A stretch of DNA of 64,000 bases from an uncultured bacterium (GTDB taxonomy: Bacteria; Cyanobacteriota; Vampirovibrionia; Gastranaerophilales; Gastranaerophilaceae): contig CASELF010000027.1 of the NCBI GenBank assembly GCA_949288725.1, forward strand, positions 89,487 through 153,486. Reading direction: 5' to 3'. The position numbers were made by a program, and so were the translations under genes. The stretch's first letter is position 1. Each line of letters opens with the position of its first letter. A model generated the notes under the pieces. That model saw nothing but the letters and a program-made list of their open reading frames with translations, was not told the origin of the DNA and searched no databases. Shown one piece after another: positions 9,558 to 58,179 of this stretch.

Positions 9558-10244
9558 TTATTGGTGTAAATAATCTAAATTCCCATTTTGAATTACATAA
9601 TATGCGCAACCATAACCTGTTGAGTTTTTAGGAATACAATGCGTGGTATATGGATAAGTTGATTTAGGCGCACCCCATGGTTTCAAGGTTTCATCCTCAT
9701 AAGTAAAAACAAATAAATCACTACCCCACTGATTTGGTAGTTTTTCACCGTTTGTATCAACAAAAAAGACAATAAATGCACCACTTCTACGCTCATTCGT
9801 ATCGGTTGATTTCCACCAAACAGAAGTACCATTCATAAGTACAACTTTATAATACCTGGTATCAGTTGCATATTTTATATCATGGTTGGCACCATTTCTT
9901 CTTTTATACTCACGTTTTATACAAGATTGATTTGTATCCTTTGTTCCACAGTCTTCTAATATTTTTAGTTGAGGCTTCAAATGTTCAGCAATACTCATTG
10001 CATCCTTACTTGAAGTATATTCTGAAACCCACCCGGAAGCACCACCGCTTTCCTGTTCAGCTAACCTCACAGCCTCTGTCAAAATTGAATGTGTGGCTTG
10101 TAGTTTTGAAACTGTTTCTCTTTCTCGGATATTTTGAATCAATGTAGGTATTGCCATGGCAGAAATAACGCCTATTATACCAATAGCAATCAAAACTTCG
10201 GCTAAACTAAATCCAACTCTCTTTTCATTCTCAATCTTTTTCAT
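9558..10244 (-). CDS. Prepilin-type N-terminal cleavage/methylation domain protein (type IV pilin-like)
   Basis: MKKIENEKRVG/FSLAEVLIAIGIIGVISAMAIP matches the class III signal peptide (G-F-S/T-L-x-E plus a hydrophobic helix). The globular C-terminal part carries Cys residues. Start taken at the ATG (10244) rather than the upstream TTG. Confidence 0.75.
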   Translation of the reverse strand: MKKIENEKRVGFSLAEVLIAIGIIGVISAMAIPTLIQNIRERETVSKLQATHSILTEAVRLAEQESGGASGWVSEYTSSKDAMSIAEHLKPQLKILEDCGTKDTNQSCIKREYKRRNGANHDIKYATDTRYYKVVLMNGTSVWWKSTDTNERRSGAFIVFFVDTNGEKLPNQWGSDLFVFTYEDETLKPWGAPKSTYPYTTHCIPKNSTGYGCAYYVIQNGNLDYLHQ

Positions 10245-10343
10245 AATACATAACAAAACATTATATTGTATAATTCATATTTTCCAATATAGCATAAACC
10301 ATATATCGGGTCAAATTAACACAAGTTAATGTGAAAGAAGATT

Positions 10344-10374
10344 AAAAAAAGGGACTTTTAAAAAGTCCCTTTTA
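10344..10374 (-). terminator. Intrinsic terminator after the J-protein gene
   Basis: AGGGACTTT/AAAGTCCCT hairpin (10350-10370), followed on the minus strand by a U-run (complement of the A-run at 10344-10350). Confidence 0.7.
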
Positions 10375-10375
10375 C

Positions 10376-11425
10376 TTATTTAGCAAGTTGTTTATACAAA
10401 TCAATTTCTCTTTGTGAAAGTTTTTCAGGTAAAACTATTTTGATACGAGCATTGAGATTGCCATATCCACCTGATTTTTTAGGTAAGCCTAAGTTTTTAA
10501 GTCTTAACATTTTTCCTGAAGAGGTCATTTTAGGAATTTTTATTCCTATTGTACCGTGTAGTGTTTTTATTTCCTTTTGACAACCTAAAACAGCTTCCGG
10601 AGGAGTTATTTCTACATCTTTTGTCAAATCGGAACCTGAAATTTGATATTCACTATCAACTGGTGTAATTATCAAATATAAATCGCCTTTTTGACCATAA
10701 GCATCGGTTTTTCCTTCACCTTTAAGACGGATTTTTTGACCTGGTTTAACTTCTTTTGGAAGTTTAACTTTAAGAGATTTTGTTTCATTGATAATACCTG
10801 TGCCGCCGCAAGCAGAACAATAACCGCCACCGCCAGGACATTGAGTACATTTTCTCATGTCATTAAATTTCACGGTAATCGGGGAATCTGAAAACAAATC
10901 TTCTGCCGTTACATTTAGGGTTTTGGTTACATCCAAATCTTCTGATTTAGGTTTTTGGCGAGGAGTTCTCCCTGTGCTATATGTTCTTGTATAGCCTTGA
11001 GGCCCCATGCCTGAACCGAAATCAAATCCGGAAAAACCGCCTCTTGAATGTGTTGAAGCACCTGCCCCCATCATATCTCCGAACAATGAACTAAAGAAGT
11101 CGGAAAATCCGCCCATATCTTGCCCATTGAAGTTAAACGTTTGATAGTTGCCTCCTCCAAAGTTAAAGTTTTCAAATCCCGGAGGTGGAGTATAATCGGC
11201 ACCACTTTGCCAATTTGAACCAAGGCTATCATATCTTTGACGTTTTTGCTTATCGCCTAATACTTCATAGGCCTCATTTATTTCCTTGAACTTTTCTTCT
11301 GCTTCTTTTGTTTTATTTACATCAGGGTGATATTTTCTTGCCAGTTTTCTGAATGCAGATTTTATTTCTGCTTCAGTTGCATCCCGTTTTACTCCCAAAG
11401 TTTCATAATAATCTTTATATTTCAT
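10376..11425 (-). CDS. DnaJ/CbpA-family J-domain co-chaperone with a reduced zinc-finger region
   Basis: J domain with HPD (KDYYETLGV...KYHPDVNK), a G/F-rich linker, only [18 protein letters not shown] (two CxxC) instead of four CxxCxGxG repeats, and a DnaJ C-terminal beta-domain. SD AGGAG lies upstream. Confidence 0.85.
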
Positions 11426-11505: not shown

Positions 11506-11913
11506 TTATTTTTCTTGTAAATTTTCACTCATTTCAGAAAGATTATTTTTAATAATATTATTGATATCCTTCTTGTTCAAAAACTCCAAAATTTCTTCTT
11601 TATTACCAGCCGCAAGAGTTCTTGATGTTTGAATTCTCATTTTTGGATGCAACATATTTAATGATAAGAAATGTCTGCCTGCATCATCAGGTGTTTGTTC
11701 TACGGAAAGACTATAAGCTTTACAAAACAATTGTTCTGAGTCATTTCTTACACTTTCATCGACAGGTCTATAGTATTGAGTATCTGAAACATAATTCTGG
11801 GTATTAGTCTTTATATTTTTAACTAAGTTTGTAATTGATTCATTAATGTCCACTTTTGGTTTTTCCTGTGTTCTAATTACTTCCATATATTTATTTCTGT
11901 ATAATTTTATCAT
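11506..11913 (-). CDS. Hypothetical protein (135 aa), downstream partner of the RelA/SpoT-like gene
   Basis: ORF with SD GAGGT 5 nt upstream of the ATG, 22 nt after the stop of the preceding gene. No motif recognised. Confidence 0.55.
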   Translation of the reverse strand: MIKLYRNKYMEVIRTQEKPKVDINESITNLVKNIKTNTQNYVSDTQYYRPVDESVRNDSEQLFCKAYSLSVEQTPDDAGRHFLSLNMLHPKMRIQTSRTLAAGNKEEILEFLNKKDINNIIKNNLSEMSENLQEK

Positions 11914-11935
11914 AATTACCTCAATTAATCTATTA

Positions 11936-13357
11936 CTATGCTGCGATATTTATATGCGGGACAAAACCGACTTTTTTTGCTGCTTGTTCAGCATCATCTA
12001 TTGCGTGTAATCTTATCATATTATCTTCACTCAAAATCGGATTAAACTTGGTTGGAAGTTTTGGTTTTATTCCGTAAATTCCGAGTTCAAGATCTCTATA
12101 ATAATCATAACATGCACTCAGGTATTTATTATATTCTTTATATTCCTCAGCAGATAAGCCTTTTGCTGCGGCTTGATATTCATCATATACCGGACCTAAA
12201 GTGTTTTTATTACGTCTTGAATCATATGCAATATGTTCAACTTCACCAAACGGACCTTTTCCTCTGACTTGAATTTCTGCCAAAGAACCGTTTGAAAGTT
12301 CTACGTTAAATTGTGCTGTTGTATAACCTGATTCCTTCATTGCTTGTTCTTCCAGAGGGGTTAAGGATTTGCTAAATCTTTTTGCCTCAGAACAAGTAAC
12401 AATATCAAATTTATTACCTGTTACCAACTGCATTTCTCTAAATTGTGCAATCTGCCTGTCCGTAAAATACGGAATGCCTTGATGCCCTGTATAGTTTTCA
12501 AGTTCCGTTATTTTCATTGGCTTAATTTTATCATAATTGGTTTTTAATGCTTTTATTATATCAGCGTTAACACCACTTTTTTCTATTTGTGCAATAGTTG
12601 TAGCGCCGCTTTCAATACCATGTTTCAATGATGAAAGCATAACCTGATTAAATACTGGTGCAGATTGTTTTTCTGCAAGAGCAAGTTTTACAGGACGTGA
12701 ATATTTTTGCGCAATTTGCATCTCTGCCTTAGTTAATGGTTCTTGCTTAAAGAATTTCATGATAATATTTTGTTCTTCCGCGGTTAATGCCTTATTGTTA
12801 ATTTTTATTGTTTTTAAAGTATCTACAATATCATTCTGAGTAAGATTTTTCATTGTGACTCTACCGCCTATTGCATCTTTTATAAGTTTGCTTGCAGAAG
12901 AATCGGATCTGATTACAATTCCTTTATCAATAACTTTCTTTTTCAATTTTGAATAAACTGAATTTGCACCCTTTGCTCGTACCGAAATATCTTGCCCTGC
13001 AAAGATACCTTCAATTTCTTTTTGTGCAACAGGTAATGCATCTTCATAACCTTTTGAAAGTCTTATTGATACGTTACCTAATTCATCATCAACAACTTCG
13101 TCAAGTTTGCCTGTTAAATTATTTTTTCTAATACGCATTACAGGTCTTGAACCGTTTATTGTTGAAGGTGATACAGGCATTGAAATATCCGGCTTTACAT
13201 TATACTTAACCCTTACTTTGCTAAAATCAATCATATTCTTGGCATCTGCGATTGGAATATATTTACCGTCAATTTTAACCTTTAATTTTGGTCTACACAT
13301 AAATGCACTTTTCAGCGGCTTTGCTGCATACGACAATGTTTTTGATAAAAATCCCAT
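11936..13357 (-). CDS. Divergent RelA/SpoT-domain (RSH synthetase-fold) nucleotidyltransferase with a large insertion
   Basis: Four ordered blocks match small alarmone synthetases. VRAKGANSVYSKLKKK (aa 126-141) compares with GRVKxxxSIxEKxxRK. DAIGGRV (161-167) compares with DIAGLRI. ESGYTTAQF (342-350) compares with ESGYRSYHL. AEIQVRG..EVEH (360-375) compares with VEIQIRT..WAxxEH. SD AGGAG lies upstream of the ATG at 13357. Confidence 0.6.
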   Translation of the reverse strand: MGFLSKTLSYAAKPLKSAFMCRPKLKVKIDGKYIPIADAKNMIDFSKVRVKYNVKPDISMPVSPSTINGSRPVMRIRKNNLTGKLDEVVDDELGNVSIRLSKGYEDALPVAQKEIEGIFAGQDISVRAKGANSVYSKLKKKVIDKGIVIRSDSSASKLIKDAIGGRVTMKNLTQNDIVDTLKTIKINNKALTAEEQNIIMKFFKQEPLTKAEMQIAQKYSRPVKLALAEKQSAPVFNQVMLSSLKHGIESGATTIAQIEKSGVNADIIKALKTNYDKIKPMKITELENYTGHQGIPYFTDRQIAQFREMQLVTGNKFDIVTCSEAKRFSKSLTPLEEQAMKESGYTTAQFNVELSNGSLAEIQVRGKGPFGEVEHIAYDSRRNKNTLGPVYDEYQAAAKGLSAEEYKEYNKYLSACYDYYRDLELGIYGIKPKLPTKFNPILSEDNMIRLHAIDDAEQAAKKVGFVPHINIAA

Positions 13358-13481
13358 TCTATTTCTCCTATTAAAATATATCCCCTATATTTTTTATAAA
13401 AATTTTCCGATGCAAAAATTGACATAAAAAAAAGATATATTACGAAATGTAATATACCTTTTTTAATCTTTAACTACTTTA

Positions 13482-13709
13482 CTATTTTAAACTTACTCTA
13501 ACAGCAGGTCCTTTTTGTGAAATTTCTACTTTGTTTTCTCTTGCTAGCCAGCCTAAGCCTAAATCAGCGAAATTACCTTTTAAGTCCAATTCTTTTTTCA
13601 TTTTTGCAAATGTTGTTGTTCCGTTTTCGCTAAGATAATTGTAGATTTCTCCTGCTGAAAATCCGATTTGTTCTTCTAATGTTAATGCTGGTTTTCTTGT
13701 TGTTGCCAT
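13482..13709 (-). CDS. Small winged-helix protein (DUF2582-like)
   Basis: 75 aa. IGFSAGEIYNYLSENG...LGLGWLARENKV resembles the DUF2582 wHTH family signature (GWLARExK). Confidence 0.5.
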   Translation of the reverse strand: MATTRKPALTLEEQIGFSAGEIYNYLSENGTTTFAKMKKELDLKGNFADLGLGWLARENKVEISQKGPAVRVSLK

Positions 13710-53748: not shown

Positions 53749-56700
53749 ATGGCAAAAACACATATTCCATTTTTAAAAGGTGATATATGCAGCACAAGCG
53801 GAGTTTCAATTTCGCAAAGTCTTGTTGACCAATATTCAGAAGAAGTAATTGAACTTGCTATACAATTAAAAGCAAACAACTTAAACGGGGTAGGAGGAAA
53901 CAGAAAAGATAATGCACAAAAGCCATTAAGTTCAAATGACCAAAGCAGTTATGATACATTCTTTGTTGAATCAGCAATCAGAATGCTTAACAATGAACAA
54001 AGAAACAAAATATTTGCAATATTCAAGGAAATGGCAAAAGATTGTCCGATAGATGATCCACAATGGGCAGGATATTCAGCAGATGAAATTCTTGCGATGG
54101 AAAAAAACGGAGTACTAATCCCAGAAGATATAGTTGCCTGGGCACACAGCCAACAACAACTGGATGAAACTAACTATGTATTGGAAACCGATTCTAATAC
54201 AGAAGATCCGACTGTAGAAGACACATTTGCCAATACAGATTCACTAGATGTATTACAAGCAACCGCAAAGAAAAATATAGAAAAAGCAGAAAATGCAGAT
54301 AAAAAAGTAGAAGAAAAAAAAGAAAAATATGAAACAATTGCACAAAAAGCAACTCAAATAAAAAAAGAAAAAGAAAACAGTTTTTTTGAATCAATACAAA
54401 AAATTAAGACACTACAAGATAAATGGGAAGCATTAAAGACAAAAAAAGAAACCGGAAAATTAACTGCCAACGAAGAAAGTGAATTCAAAGAATTATCTAA
54501 ACAATTAAAAAACAGCGACACAGAAACAAAATCAACAATGCAAACAGGCAAAAATGATTTAGATGACTTTTTGAAAGAACTGGACAGTTTAAATCTTGAA
54601 ATTAATAATACCGCACAAATTGCCAAAGACACAATCTATTCAGGAAGGACATTGAATACCCTAACAAAGAACTACAATGTCTATAATTTGCCATACGCAT
54701 ATACAGGAACAAGTTTTGATAACAGCGGTCTGATTTCATTAACCTTAAACGGTATGACAAACGAAGAAATTGGCGAATTAGCAGTACAAAAAGGTGAAGA
54801 ACTTGACACAAATAATAACACCATAGAAACAGAAGCAAGTGGAGGCGAATATTCTGAAACAATAGAATTTGCGACGAATTACACAAATTACATAACAGAA
54901 AGTGAAACAAAAACAGAAAACGAAAAGAATAAAACAGAAGGCTCAGCAACAGAACCGGAAACAACCGACCAAGCAGACTTAGCTGACGACGCAACAACAG
55001 AAGATGGTCAAACAAATACAACTACAGACAATCAAACAACTCAAAATAACGGAACCCAAAACGAAACTCCGTCAATAAAATTTGGTATAAAAGAATCTAT
55101 ACAAGCAACTCAAAGAACTATAGATTCTAGTTCAACTGATGTTGATAAAACAGGAACAGTTATTTCCGATAACAAAGATTTGAATAAAGAACTAAAAACC
55201 GCAAAAATCGAAATGACATACATCAACAAAGAAGTAGATTCTTTAAACGAAAAATTAACAGGTAACGAACAAGACACCGAAACATTCTTACAAGAACTTG
55301 AAAGATTACAAGCAGAATCTTCAGAAGATGGAATTCAAGTTGCACAAACGACCTCACAACCGGAAACCCAAACAGAAAATACAACAACCACAGCACAACA
55401 ACAACCTGAAGTAGGAACCGTTGTTAAAAACGGACAAAGCGAAATTGAAAAATCAGCACAAACGGCAACAACAGTTCTAAACTCATTTGCAGCAGCCGAC
55501 CAAATTATCGCACAAAACACAAATAAACCGGAAAATGTAAATGAAGAAATAACACCGGAAGAAGCTGCAAAAAAAGAAAAAGAAGCGAATATAAAGAGTA
55601 AAAAACTGGAACTTGCCCAAAATATTCAAGACCTTGGGGAAGACAGAACAGATATAAGTACAGATTTAGAAAAAGCAATAACTGCAGGAGATCTTGCGAC
55701 AACAGAAGGCGTAAAATCACTTGAAGTATTGAGCAAAAGCCACGGACAATTAACAACCCAAAATGCAACAACATCACAAGATGCAACAGATGCAATAGAA
55801 ACAGGAACAATGACACAAGCAATAGGGTTAATGGACAAATTCAACGGAATTGCTACCTTCAGTTATGGTGTATTGCTTGCCTCAAATCCATTTACAATGC
55901 CACAAGGCATGTTGCTAATGGGAATAGGTAACGCATTACAAATAAAAGGAAATCTGGAAGTTGTAACAGGAACAGTGGCAGCAACAAGCGGAGCCGCAGG
56001 AAAAGCAACAACATTAGTCGCAAATTCTGCAATAGGTTCTGCCGTAACGACAATGACACAAGCAGAATCTATACTTAACGTAAACGTAACAACAATAGAC
56101 GAAGCAAATGCTCAAGCAGAAGAAGGTCAAAACCCAACTCAAACCCAAAACCAAAACAATACAACAACTCCAACTCAAGCAACCACAGGAGAAAATCCTG
56201 TTGCTGATGCAATTACCGGAGTAACAACCGCACCGGAAACAAATACCCAAACCCAAGACCAAACAACAAATTCAACCCTTTCTGATGCAATAAATAACGT
56301 TATGACTCAACAAGTCAACCCGACAATACAACAAGAACAAGAAACAACAAATACAACAACAACTCCAGAAACAAACAATGAAGTTGCAGAACAACCTGCA
56401 CAAACACCTGCAAATACAACTGTGAATGAAGAAACAAATACAAATACAAATACAACAACACAAGAAGAACAAACAACAACTAACGGTGCAACTCAACAAA
56501 CAGCAGAAACAGAACAAAAACAACCTGCCCAACAAGAAACACAAGAAAATAACGCCGAAGGAACTGAACCACAAGCAATACAAAATACAACTCAAACACA
56601 AGTTGAAAAGAACCAACCACAAAACCCGAGCCAAACACAAGAATTGCAACCACAAGGAGTAAGCGAACAAAAACAAAACACAGAAGAAACAACCCCACAA

Positions 56701-58179
56701 ACAAACACAAATACAACGGAAGAAAGCAAAAATGCAGAATCCACCAAAAAAGAAACAGAAGAAGCAACCGAAAAAGATGCCGATAATGCAACAAAGGAAT
56801 CAAAAGGTTATCTTCAAGATATGAATTCTGCAAATAAAGAAGATGAAAAGTCACAAAAGGATGCAAAAAGCATTTCAAAAGAAATAAAAGACATCAATAA
56901 AACCACCAAAAAGGACGATGAGAAATTCCAAAAAGAAGTAAAACAAGAACAAAAACAAATAGAAAAGATACAACAAGAAATTGAAGAAAAAAATCAAAAA
57001 ATGATGCAACTACAAGAAGAACAAGTTGAACTACAAACAAACTTGGAAGAACTTAACGCTGCATTCAACTCAGCAACACCGACCAAACAAGCAGAAATTC
57101 AAGCAAACATACAAACAAAATCAGGTCAACTTCTTGAGAAAAATTCACAATCAACAGAAGTTGCTTCTCAAAACGTAATCCTAAAAGTCGGAACAACAAA
57201 AAAAGTACAAGGTCTAAGAAGATCAATACAAGTACATACGACAACTGCAAAAAGGAATCAAAAAATAGCAACAAATGATTCAAAAACAGCAGACAAAATA
57301 TTAAAAATAGCAGATACAACCAGCCAAGTTGCAGGACTGGCATCAATAGCAGGGAGCATCACATCAAAAATTGGTAATGCTGTAACCCTAGCCGGAAACA
57401 CACAAATAACAGCAGGAAACATTCAAATTTCCACAGGCACACCGCTATTATCAAACCCATTCACAGTAAGTTTAGGAACAGCGCTAATAACAGCAGGTAC
57501 AAGCCAAGTTGTAGCAGGTTCAGCACAAGTTGCAACAGGAACAACGACATCAATAATAGGTGAATCCGTATCTCTAGCAGCAAACATAACCAATACAGCA
57601 GCAAGCGCAACAAAAGCCGCAATATACATTGAACAAGGAAACATAGCAGGTGCACTTATGGCAACAGGCTCAGCAATCATGTCAGGCGTATCTGCAGGTC
57701 AAAACATTTCGCAAATCGGCCAACTAAACCAAATGGCAGATAGCGCATCTGCAGTAGCAAGCAGTGCACAACAAGCATCAACTCAAGCGACAGGCGCAAG
57801 CAATGCTGTAAATAACGGAACAGCAACAACAACCCAATTAGCAGATACAACAGCATCAATAAATGACTCCATGACAGGAGCAATAAACGGAACAACAGAT
57901 GCAAGCGGGAAAGTTGTTTCTCAAGGCTTTAACCAAACCAGCAGTTCAATTTCAAAAGCAGCAAAAATCGGATTTGATGACGTAATGCAAATCGGAGGTG
58001 CAGCCCAAACCGTAGGTTCAATGATAGGAACAGATAATGATGGCTCCGCCGACATTAAACAAGACAGAAAATTACGCAGATTTGGTTCTATTACAAGAAT
58101 TAACACCAAGAAAAAACTTCAAAAAGTTAATTCTGTATCAACAAGTTCATATAACAGCAGACGAGGAGGAAATTACTAA
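53749..58179 (+). CDS. Giant hypothetical protein (1476 aa): coiled coils, T/Q/N/E low complexity, two NPFT plus Gly/Ala-zipper hydrophobic modules
   Basis: A single uninterrupted ORF with strongly purine-rich codon use. Modules are ASNPFTMPQGMLLMGIGNALQIKG... (about nt 55880) and LSNPFTVSLGTALITAGTSQVVAG... (about nt 57450). It has K/E/Q coiled coils and a basic C-terminal tail. No signal peptide is evident. Confidence 0.6.
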   Translation: MAKTHIPFLKGDICSTSGVSISQSLVDQYSEEVIELAIQLKANNLNGVGGNRKDNAQKPLSSNDQSSYDTFFVESAIRMLNNEQRNKIFAIFKEMAKDCPIDDPQWAGYSADEILAMEKNGVLIPEDIVAWAHSQQQLDETNYVLETDSNTEDPTVEDTFANTDSLDVLQATAKKNIEKAENADKKVEEKKEKYETIAQKATQIKKEKENSFFESIQKIKTLQDKWEALKTKKETGKLTANEESEFKELSKQLKNSDTETKSTMQTGKNDLDDFLKELDSLNLEINNTAQIAKDTIYSGRTLNTLTKNYNVYNLPYAYTGTSFDNSGLISLTLNGMTNEEIGELAVQKGEELDTNNNTIETEASGGEYSETIEFATNYTNYITESETKTENEKNKTEGSATEPETTDQADLADDATTEDGQTNTTTDNQTTQNNGTQNETPSIKFGIKESIQATQRTIDSSSTDVDKTGTVISDNKDLNKELKTAKIEMTYINKEVDSLNEKLTGNEQDTETFLQELERLQAESSEDGIQVAQTTSQPETQTENTTTTAQQQPEVGTVVKNGQSEIEKSAQTATTVLNSFAAADQIIAQNTNKPENVNEEITPEEAAKKEKEANIKSKKLELAQNIQDLGEDRTDISTDLEKAITAGDLATTEGVKSLEVLSKSHGQLTTQNATTSQDATDAIETGTMTQAIGLMDKFNGIATFSYGVLLASNPFTMPQGMLLMGIGNALQIKGNLEVVTGTVAATSGAAGKATTLVANSAIGSAVTTMTQAESILNVNVTTIDEANAQAEEGQNPTQTQNQNNTTTPTQATTGENPVADAITGVTTAPETNTQTQDQTTNSTLSDAINNVMTQQVNPTIQQEQETTNTTTTPETNNEVAEQPAQTPANTTVNEETNTNTNTTTQEEQTTTNGATQQTAETEQKQPAQQETQENNAEGTEPQAIQNTTQTQVEKNQPQNPSQTQELQPQGVSEQKQNTEETTPQTNTNTTEESKNAESTKKETEEATEKDADNATKESKGYLQDMNSANKEDEKSQKDAKSISKEIKDINKTTKKDDEKFQKEVKQEQKQIEKIQQEIEEKNQKMMQLQEEQVELQTNLEELNAAFNSATPTKQAEIQANIQTKSGQLLEKNSQSTEVASQNVILKVGTTKKVQGLRRSIQVHTTTAKRNQKIATNDSKTADKILKIADTTSQVAGLASIAGSITSKIGNAVTLAGNTQITAGNIQISTGTPLLSNPFTVSLGTALITAGTSQVVAGSAQVATGTTTSIIGESVSLAANITNTAASATKAAIYIEQGNIAGALMATGSAIMSGVSAGQNISQIGQLNQMADSASAVASSAQQASTQATGASNAVNNGTATTTQLADTTASINDSMTGAINGTTDASGKVVSQGFNQTSSSISKAAKIGFDDVMQIGGAAQTVGSMIGTDNDGSADIKQDRKLRRFGSITRINTKKKLQKVNSVSTSSYNSRRGGNY

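Follow-up and report, generated by a model that had tools for sequence, protein, structure and literature searches.

A gene pair that encodes a RelA/SpoT-homolog (RSH) synthetase-fold protein and its small cognate partner is described here from a 64-kb stretch of DNA, called the window throughout, which was taken from an uncultured bacterium of the Gastranaerophilaceae (contig CASELF010000027.1, positions 89,487 to 153,486). The larger product of the pair, a stand-alone protein of 473 aa (11936-13357, minus strand, from the list of open reading frames (ORFs)), is a genuine RSH synthetase-fold protein whose catalytic motif set is intact, and it belongs to a large undescribed clade. It is referred to as the enzyme in the following. 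The smaller product of 135 aa (11506-11913, minus strand) is the obligate, co-evolving small partner of the enzyme. By analogy with toxin-antitoxin (TA) and toxin-immunity systems, the pair is best read as an active pyrophosphokinase that a dedicated, co-evolving partner would bind and restrain in the fashion of an antitoxin or immunity protein, with a probability of about 0.5. The general kind, an RSH synthetase domain accompanied by a small cognate protein, is already known. Within the libraries and literature searched, what appears as new is the clade itself, the insertion at the predicted acceptor site, the fold of the partner, the distribution in Melainabacteria, the giant mosaic relatives, and the link to J domains.

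RSH fold and catalytic motifs of the enzyme

The enzyme carries the motif blocks VRAKGANSVYSKLKKK (aa 126-141), DAIGGRV (161-167), ESGYTTAQF (342-350), AEIQVRG (360-366), and EVEH (372-375), in which blocks two and three are separated by 174 aa. The ordered RSH catalytic set RxKxxxSxxxK, DxxGxR, G-loop GY, ExQxR, and EH is thereby complete and aligns with the motifs of RelP. Sixty homolog clusters were found for the enzyme. In 44 homologs, which reach down to 36% identity, R127, K129, S133, K137, D161, G164, R166, Y345, Q349, E361, Q363, R365, and H375 are invariant, and the full motif set including G344 and E374 is invariant or nearly so when 13 distant relatives are added to these 44. The motif blocks are therefore not a product of chance. 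An earlier note on this DNA, which was made from the letters and the reading frames alone, had placed the blocks at exactly these positions and had read a Gln in place of the His of GYRSxH; both observations are confirmed by the invariant residues, the latter by Q349.

The Pfam model RelA_SpoT (PF04607, profile length 113, gathering cutoff 27 bits) scores the full-length enzyme at 19.2 bits, below its cutoff, and matches with the first half of the profile only (positions 2-62). When residues 191-280 and 300-339 are excised, the score rises to 32.2 bits (E=1.4e-7) and the match extends over profile positions 2-91 of 113, so that the profile check suggested by the earlier note is positive for the trimmed enzyme and negative for the full-length one. 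Homologs that were trimmed in a similar manner match in 18 of 21 cases, and relatives that naturally lack the first of the two insertions (insertion A, see below) pass the cutoff unmodified (P0139, 34.6 bits; P0178, 30.7 bits; P0153, 31.2 bits).

An AlphaFold2 (AF2) model of the enzyme, built on the family alignment, reaches a mean predicted local distance difference test score (pLDDT) of 91.6 and a predicted template-modeling score of 0.87. In a Foldseek comparison with the PDB, ranks 1-17 are all alarmone synthetases or their close kin, among them RelP, RelQ, the small alarmone synthetases (SAS) of pneumococcus and S. mutans, CapRel (7ztb), and an exported SAS from Streptomyces (8vx3). The probabilities reach 1.00 and the target-normalized template-modeling (TM) scores lie between 0.40 and 0.57, the best value belonging to 8vx3; the E-values are modest, at about 1e-2, since the shared core accounts for only half of the query. 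Among viral structures (BFVD), a phage RelA/SpoT protein ranks first (E=4.6e-5). The retrieval of alarmone synthetases by the model bears out the fold that had been proposed. PDB sequence searches with the full-length enzyme or a full-length profile returned only spurious matches to designed repeat proteins, and no match to the enzyme or its partner was found in NCBIfam or PADLOC. A profile of the 13 distant relatives lacking insertion A, in turn, finds RelP from B. subtilis (6fgk, E=9e-8), followed by long Rel and RelQ. Given the intact motifs, the enzyme is probably catalytically active.

The closest known enzymes are thus RelP and RelQ (SAS1/SAS2; 6fgk, 6fgj, 5ded), the best PDB matches by profile (RelP, E=9e-8) and by fold. 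The enzyme shares with them the synthetase fold and five motif blocks in the same order, and both consist of a single synthetase domain without a hydrolase. It differs in being about twice the size, with an N-terminal β domain and a C-terminal helical extension, in two insertions of which one lies beside the G-loop, in the Gln that replaces the His of GYxSxH, in a full-length Pfam score below cutoff, and in the obligate downstream partner gene, which RelP and RelQ lack.

Domain layout and the two insertions

All features of the enzyme are given on the minus strand. The protein starts with a disordered, basic N-terminus (aa 1-24; 13286-13357) that is poorly conserved, with a pLDDT below 50 for residues 1-17 and the lowest column conservation (0.37). 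A small β-rich domain follows (aa 25-86; 13100-13285; strands within 26-61), which has a pI of 10.3 and a KPDITMP motif. This domain is kept in giant relatives of the enzyme, as the profile match begins at positions 6-43 in P0173, P0122, and P0124. A long helix leads into the first half of the catalytic core (aa 87-190; 12788-13099), which is delimited by invariant residues, the Pfam match, and the alignment with RelP. R127-x-K129...S133...K137 corresponds to the ATP-binding motif and D161-x-x-G164-x-R166 to the Mg/ATP strand, and the two align with SRVKSFESIVNKL and DIAGVRI of RelP.

Insertion A (about aa 191-280; 12518-12787) is placed after the DxxGxR strand and one helix. Its secondary structure is that of a helical arm, in which one helix spans 40 residues (210-249); L227 and E229 of this insertion are invariant. 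Its mean column identity of 0.63 compares with 0.66 for the catalytic core, and conservation is lowest over the first 86 residues of the protein. In most of the superfamily, insertion A is missing or shortened, and the most distant relatives skip profile positions of about 190-265. The chain then returns to the core with the conserved strand ITELENYTGHQGIPYF (aa 281-299; 12461-12517), which equals the RSH '(K)DYI' strand in the RelP alignment and in the model. Its segment ITELENY (aa 283-289) aligns with 'LRIVKVK(DY)' of RelP, and N288, Y289, G291, and G294 are invariant.

Insertion B (about aa 300-340; 12338-12460) is a helix-strand-helix element of some 40 aa that connects the DYI strand with the PK-x-GY G-loop and is found throughout a superfamily of 508 clusters. 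In canonical RSH enzymes, only about 3-5 residues separate the two ("DYIxxPKxNGY"). The second half of the catalytic core (aa 341-385; 12203-12337) is assigned from invariant columns and the alignment with RelP, Rel, and RelQ; it contains K341, the G-loop G344-Y345, E361-x-Q363-x-R365, and E374-H375. The replacement of the His of GYxSxH by Q349 extends beyond the 44 homologs, being nearly invariant in the wider family. A C-terminal helical extension (aa 386-473; 11939-12202; helices within 389-462) with YDYYR and LSE..M motifs completes the protein and is kept across the superfamily, in which the profile coverage of distant relatives reaches about position 440-470. The earlier note had seen one insertion of about 145 aa between the motif blocks. 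The extra residues are real, and they fall into two elements instead of one, of which A (about 90 aa) is present in part of the family and B (about 40 aa) superfamily-wide.

Insertion B directly precedes the G-loop and is therefore predicted, from the alignment and the model, to lie on that side of the active site which takes the acceptor nucleotide. The acceptor site is rebuilt by insertion B and by the His-to-Gln substitution, while the donor (ATP) side is canonical. Insertion B is accordingly positioned at the acceptor site and is more likely than insertion A to be a determinant of the substrate. The sensor role that the earlier note had suggested for the inserted sequence may apply. The acceptor motif PKxNGYxSxH with a short connection from DYI to the G-loop, by which (p)ppGpp-specific SAS are recognized, is absent from the enzyme.

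Several family members depart from this layout. In three variants of 543-545 aa (L027, L028, P0117), the enzyme is about 70 aa longer and the profile matches three overlapping stretches (46-280, 255-328, and 304-475), which indicates an internal duplication near the end of insertion A. At two further loci, the enzyme gene is broken into two overlapping frames (L030, 5656-7168; L049, 2223-3520), either as frameshifted pseudogenes or through assembly errors. L030 is labeled as a bin of a Methanomethylophilaceae archaeon; its neighbors fit the synteny of Gastranaerophilales, and the contig is probably mis-binned.

The small partner and its co-evolution with the enzyme

A gene of the partner family was detected by profile in 58 of the 59 sources that hold a copy of the enzyme. 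A genome scan, which covered one genome per bacterial and archaeal species, yielded 50 loci, and essentially all of them have an ORF of 128-143 aa located 10-35 nt 3′ of the enzyme gene. Independent metagenome loci with sufficient downstream sequence contain a detectable partner ORF in 48 of 56 cases; a same-sized ORF with a weak match or at a greater distance raises this to 53 of 56, and the remaining three have none. The pairing for which a survey of orthologs had been proposed is thereby well established. The description of the 135-aa protein as an ORFan, on the other hand, does not hold, as its family comprises at least 52 clusters, all of them unannotated and without a Pfam domain.

The AF2 model of the partner (pLDDT 87) takes on a fold in which a disordered N-terminus and a helix (23-41) are followed by a four-stranded antiparallel sheet (51-103) and two C-terminal helices, and the sequence carries an LHP motif and the invariant G103. 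Foldseek repeatedly matches this model to the Whirly/PUR-alpha/MRP group of single-stranded nucleic-acid binders. The matches are weak (E 0.02-0.05, TM about 0.35), and the resemblance of the predicted fold to Whirly and PUR-alpha is a lead only. The partner profile has no match among PDB sequences. A role as type III secretion chaperone was considered and rejected, as the family is basic (median pI 9.1) and no chaperone folds are among the matches.

The enzyme and the partner are both under purifying selection, which follows from a ratio of nonsynonymous to synonymous rates (omega) of about 0.1 relative to the closest ortholog (enzyme, 0.095; partner, 0.104). The neighboring genes for a DnaJ-like protein, a winged helix-turn-helix (wHTH) protein, and a helicase have values of 0.04-0.06. 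Over 23 taxa, the mean pairwise p-distance amounts to 0.51 for the enzyme, 0.61 for the partner, and 0.16 for the DnaJ-like protein. The distance matrices of enzyme and partner are correlated with r=0.94, and this correlation remains at a partial r of 0.90 when DnaJ is controlled for; either of the two correlates with DnaJ at about 0.65. Co-varying distances of this kind fit a physically interacting, co-evolving pair, although they are not a formal test of it. The partner may bind the enzyme physically and may inhibit it.

Transcription unit

The pair is part of a series of four minus-strand genes that runs from 13709 down to 10347 and encodes a 75-aa DUF2582 wHTH protein (13482-13709), the enzyme, the partner, and a 349-aa DnaJ-like co-chaperone (10376-11425). 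Directly 3′ of the wHTH gene, an AT-rich hairpin with a U-run (13426-13459, minus strand) is a probable terminator. Its folding energy is -14.5 kcal/mol (z = -8.2 vs shuffles); with fewer than three G-C pairs, it was overlooked by the consensus terminator scan. The enzyme gene, which is preceded by the strong Shine-Dalgarno sequence AGGAG, therefore probably heads its own transcript as the first gene of its own operon. The 22-nt spacer between enzyme and partner (11914-11935, minus strand) holds the Shine-Dalgarno sequence GAGG of the partner, and a further 80 nt separate the partner stop from the start of the DnaJ-like gene. The terminator scan of the window found no terminator between the enzyme gene and the end of the DnaJ-like gene, and the unit is closed by an intrinsic terminator with a 12-bp stem and a T-run (10347-10373, minus strand). 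Reading frames, spacings, and the partner's Shine-Dalgarno sequence are as the earlier note had given them, and so is the lack of a terminator before about 10344-10374. No tRNA genes and no Rfam families at the gathering threshold were found across the 64-kb window (1-64000), and therefore neither a riboswitch nor a leader is seen.

Synonymous divergence (dS) from the closest genome (L001) jumps at 13400-13480, the border between the wHTH and helicase genes and the enzyme operon, from 0.27-0.29 for helicase and wHTH to 0.76-0.85 for enzyme, partner, and DnaJ. The step suggests a recombination breakpoint or separate histories of the two blocks. Downstream of the unit, a 232-aa ORF (9558-10256, minus strand) has an N-terminus that, as read from the sequence, resembles a type IV prepilin (GFSLAEVLIAIGIIGV). 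It is 39-91% identical between genomes and often absent, and the flanking DnaJ and gcvT genes are far less variable.

Distribution and genomic context

Nearly all of the 50 loci from the genome scan belong to metagenome-assembled genomes of Gastranaerophilales/Melainabacteria sampled from gut and rumen. Every one of the 50 Gastranaerophilales-type species genomes recovered encodes the stand-alone form, which additionally occurs in human-gut metagenome contigs. No relevant paper that links Melainabacteria with alarmones, ppGpp, or SpoT came up in a literature search. The order wHTH, enzyme, partner, DnaJ-like is shared by the window and about 30 related species, in which it is located amid genes for an AddA-like helicase, dnaA, ruvA, gcvTHP, and dnaE. 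In a second synteny group of genera (L031-L047, L052), whose enzymes are 31-37% identical to that of the window, the pair is located elsewhere. Here, the upstream genes on the same strand encode a histidine kinase of about 550 aa (GAF-HisKA-HATPase) and a protein of about 285 aa with HEAT_2/HEAT_PBS repeats. The four genes may form a signaling operon, which has fliL/fliM/fliN as divergent neighbors and a zinc alcohol dehydrogenase gene as convergent neighbor. The partner is the sole neighbor retained in both groups.

Enzymes of the toxic SAS (toxSAS) type have been implicated in phage defense (PMC11559606), and a CapRel-like sensor for abortive infection, in which the insertions or extensions detect a phage protein, release the enzyme from inhibition by itself or by the partner, and stop translation, is a minor alternative that is given the lowest odds of all readings. 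CapRel (7ztb) is among the fold matches, and the fast evolution of the N-terminal region and the partner could reflect an arms race. Against this stand an omega of about 0.1, which gives no gene-level sign of diversifying selection, and the conservation of insertion A at the level of the core, which is not expected of an arms-race sensor. The surroundings argue in the same direction: neither integrases nor prophage or defense genes were seen near the pair in the loci examined, PADLOC has no match for it, and the pair is assigned to no known defense family, defense island, or mobile element.

Giant mosaic relatives

An exhaustive profile search against 1.84 billion cluster representatives (clusters at 50% identity) recovers a superfamily of 508 clusters at E<=1e-3, 406 at E<=1e-10, and 124 at E<=1e-30. 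Among the best 150 matches, about 30 are stand-alone, and most of the others carry the domain within proteins of 400-7,567 aa. The 84 relatives longer than 550 aa have the domain at their extreme C-terminus in 54 cases and at an internal position in 30. Most of the long relatives lack insertion A but have retained the ITEINNY strand, insertion B, and the helices at the C-terminus. The regions that flank the domain are assembled from mosaic modules of about 300-800 aa, and 85 of 111 fall into a single BLAST component. A search with the shared N-terminal module for alternative C-terminal toxin domains returned a single match.

A partner-family gene follows every relative with readable downstream DNA, that is, those of 7,567 aa (E=2.5e-37), 3,101, 2,510, 1,756, 1,124, and 892 aa. 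Even when the RSH domain is internal (L114, L118), the partner gene comes after the end of the whole gene. The combination of a C-terminal catalytic domain on variable giants with a small gene next to it is the pattern of toxin-immunity systems and, as an analogy, favors restraint of the enzyme by its partner.

The domains recognized in 14 long relatives, counting the giant P0124 that was scanned in three pieces, are only J, EF-hand-like, HD, and RelA_SpoT. An HD phosphohydrolase domain is located downstream of the RSH domain in P0240 (2,198 aa; 1779-1863, 26.3 bits), weak EF-hand-like segments are found N-terminally in P0124 and P0173, and the 2,510-aa RSH-containing relative of L059 has a GNAT acetyltransferase domain. 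The contigs of the giant relatives encode NifS and NifU that are 64% and 58% identical to those of a Gastranaerophilales-type locus, which is only suggestive of a placement near this order. The window itself contains a 1,476-aa low-complexity ORF (53749-58179, plus strand) that is rich in T, A, E, Q, and N and has the most extreme AT skew of the window (0.44-0.54); as it has no modules in common with the giant RSH relatives, kinship with them was rejected.

Large proteins with a fused SYNTH domain and an immunity gene downstream have been described, as have exported alarmone synthetases (PMC12691689). It may be asked on this basis whether the enzyme is an exported antibacterial effector that is delivered by an unrecognized route, with the disordered N-terminus as signal and the partner as immunity protein. 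The position of the domain at the C-terminus of very large mosaic relatives with the partner gene next, the documented exported synthetases with immunity genes (PMC12691689), the best target-normalized TM score to exported 8vx3 (0.57), and the second-group operon that adjoins fliL/fliM/fliN would all fit. This reading is nevertheless a minor one and quite unlikely. The window protein and the 14 long relatives scanned contain neither a signal peptide nor LXG, PAAR/Rhs, MuF, XopAD, or DUF4157, and no other secretion or trafficking domain precedes the RSH domain of the window protein. The N-terminal β domain is part of the conserved enzyme unit and not a delivery module, orphan toxin or immunity cassettes are absent from the vicinity, and the synteny is stable, without strain-variable islands.

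Link to J domains and the signaling alternative

The DnaJ-like protein of the window has a J domain (Pfam DnaJ, 97.6 bits), a G/F region, a single CxxC...CxxC zinc centre, and a DnaJ_C domain (110 bits). The zinc centre (CTQC...CSAC) takes the place of the usual four CxxCxGxG repeats. With the TIGR02349 DnaJ model, the protein scores 245.7 bits at a cutoff of 377, yet it is 71-95% identical across the order, and it may be a specialized paralog rather than the housekeeping DnaJ. The order enzyme, partner, DnaJ-like occurs at 31 genome loci and at another 11 loci from metagenomes. The RSH polypeptide itself contains a fused J domain in at least three architectures (P0124, 1365-1416, 46.7 bits; P0229, 418-466, 30.2 bits; and L094, with an ORF of at least 1,551 aa). 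The J-protein linkage, which the earlier note had left unexplained, hence recurs both as a neighboring gene and as gene fusions, and it suggests, as a lead, that the pair is functionally connected to Hsp70. The number of fusions is small, and the DnaJ neighborhood is lost in the second synteny group. A part of the Hsp70/J system in the release of the enzyme is conceivable.

The main rival explanation is built on these observations. In this explanation, the enzyme is a lineage-specific, regulated signaling enzyme that makes an alarmone or a related nucleotide in normal physiology, the partner is an obligate regulatory, activating, or substrate-presenting subunit, and the Hsp70/J system, or in other genera the GAF histidine kinase and the HEAT-repeat protein, feeds in information on stress. 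A core-like, syntenic, and vertical distribution across Gastranaerophilales in a housekeeping neighborhood, together with purifying selection, is what such an enzyme would be expected to show. The J-domain link by neighborhood (42 loci) and by fusion (P0124, P0229, L094) and the conserved kinase and HEAT-repeat genes upstream in the second group point the same way. The HD domain on the RSH polypeptide of P0240 recalls the pairing of synthetase and hydrolase, EF-hand-like and GNAT modules occur in relatives, and the closest solved sequences are the housekeeping enzymes RelP, Rel, and RelQ. No known housekeeping SAS requires a dedicated small subunit, however, and enzyme and partner evolve far faster than their neighbors. 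The C-terminal position on giant mosaics with a small gene next is, moreover, the toxin-immunity pattern, and the loss of the DnaJ synteny in the second group leaves the link possibly historical. Taken together, the signaling explanation is possible but tentative.

A more far-reaching proposal is a hitherto undescribed, chaperone-coupled nucleotide-signaling or RNA-modifying system of non-photosynthetic cyanobacteria that is not a toxin with its antidote at all. With its rebuilt acceptor site, the enzyme would make a non-canonical product or would pyrophosphorylate RNA that is presented by the basic, PUR/Whirly-like partner, and the J protein would recruit Hsp70 as an on/off switch under proteotoxic stress. 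This proposal is regarded as rather improbable.

Comparison with known systems and proposed mechanism

In toxSAS toxin-antitoxin pairs, stand-alone SAS enzymes are combined with adjacent small genes (PMC7229694), and structured antitoxins act by occluding either the donor site or the acceptor site (PMC11782079). The enzyme resembles FaRel, FaRel2, PhRel, PhRel2, and CapRel (PMC7229694, PMC11782079) in being a stand-alone SYNTH protein with N- and C-terminal additions, in the bicistronic layout with a small cognate gene, and in the fold match to CapRel. It differs from them in falling outside of the validated subfamilies (FaRel, FaRel2, PhRel, PhRel2, CapRel, Tas1) without a PADLOC match, in a partner whose class is not pZFD, Tis1-like, PanA, or SAH, and in a fixed synteny across an order; the pair is neither mobile nor phage-borne. 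The proposal of a toxSAS-type TA or defense module consequently stands with respect to the RSH fold, the complete motifs, and the conserved bicistronic pair, and is not supported with respect to a mobile defense or TA island and a known antitoxin fold.

The long relatives are likewise comparable to Tas1/Apk1-Tis1 and exported synthetases (PMC12691689; 6ox6, 8vx3), as they carry a C-terminal SYNTH domain on large multidomain proteins with a small gene next. Their N-terminal modules are without Pfam domains, none is a known trafficking domain, and the SYNTH domain is internal in 30 of 84. Tas1 is only a marginal match, with E=0.8 by sequence and a weak match by fold, and the window protein has no delivery region.

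Tripartite toxin-antitoxin-chaperone (TAC) systems, such as the M. tuberculosis HigBA with its SecB-like chaperone, offer a third comparison. The order of enzyme, small partner, and a component of a chaperone system in one terminator-bounded unit is similar, which is an analogy only. The chaperone component of the window is of the DnaJ type, unlike the SecB-like chaperone of that system, the second synteny group does not have the linkage, and no chaperone-addiction segment was identified in the partner.

Several results weigh against an enzyme that is held in check by an antitoxin or immunity protein. The pair is vertically inherited across the order in conserved housekeeping synteny near dnaA, which is unlike typical TA or defense loci; PADLOC does not recognize it, and no relatives were found in collections of viral contigs, phages, and plasmids. 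In the profile search of the PDB, CapRel and FaRel2 are missing and Tas1 appears only at E=0.8, the nearest sequences being housekeeping (p)ppGpp synthetases. None of the known toxSAS antitoxin classes (pZFD with YXXY, Tis1-like, PanA, SAH) is among the top 50 Foldseek matches of the partner, and the median pI of the partner family is 9.1, next to 9.2 for the enzyme family, whereas many antitoxins are acidic. To these are added the internal position of the domain in 30 of the 84 long relatives and the lack of known trafficking domains in the 14 that were scanned.

For the restrained pyrophosphokinase, the following course of events is proposed. The enzyme would transfer the β-γ pyrophosphate of ATP to the 3′-OH of a purine-containing acceptor that is stacked on Y345 of the G-loop. 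Because insertion B and the His-to-Gln substitution remodel the acceptor side, the acceptor is perhaps not GDP/GTP; ATP/ADP or the 3′ end of tRNA would be precedented alternatives. The partner, which would be translated from the same transcript, would bind the enzyme, which would be harmful by itself, and most likely keep it inactive, following the logic of type II antitoxins or immunity proteins; toxSAS antitoxins and immunity proteins of the Tis1 type work in this manner (PMC7229694, PMC11782079, PMC12691689). The window contains the stand-alone form of a module that is otherwise found in giant mosaic proteins, and in Gastranaerophilales this module has become a fixed chromosomal pair that is co-transcribed with, or located just upstream of, a DnaJ-like gene.

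Significance

RSH enzymes are central to bacterial stress signaling and, as toxSAS, act as growth-arrest enzymes, and their classification has been regarded as fairly complete. The enzyme of the window represents a clade of about 500 clusters that standard domain models overlook at full length. Its architectures span from a stand-alone protein of 473 aa to mosaic giants of 7,567 aa, and its universal partner belongs to a fold class that is new for systems of this kind. The host lineage, Gastranaerophilales, is a poorly understood and uncultured group from human and animal guts. Should the enzyme prove to be a toxin, the pair would provide a new mechanism of antitoxin or immunity action and a rare case in which such a module has settled as a fixed pair of core genes. 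Should it prove to be a signaling enzyme, it may stand for a new nucleotide messenger or couple Hsp70 to alarmone signaling.

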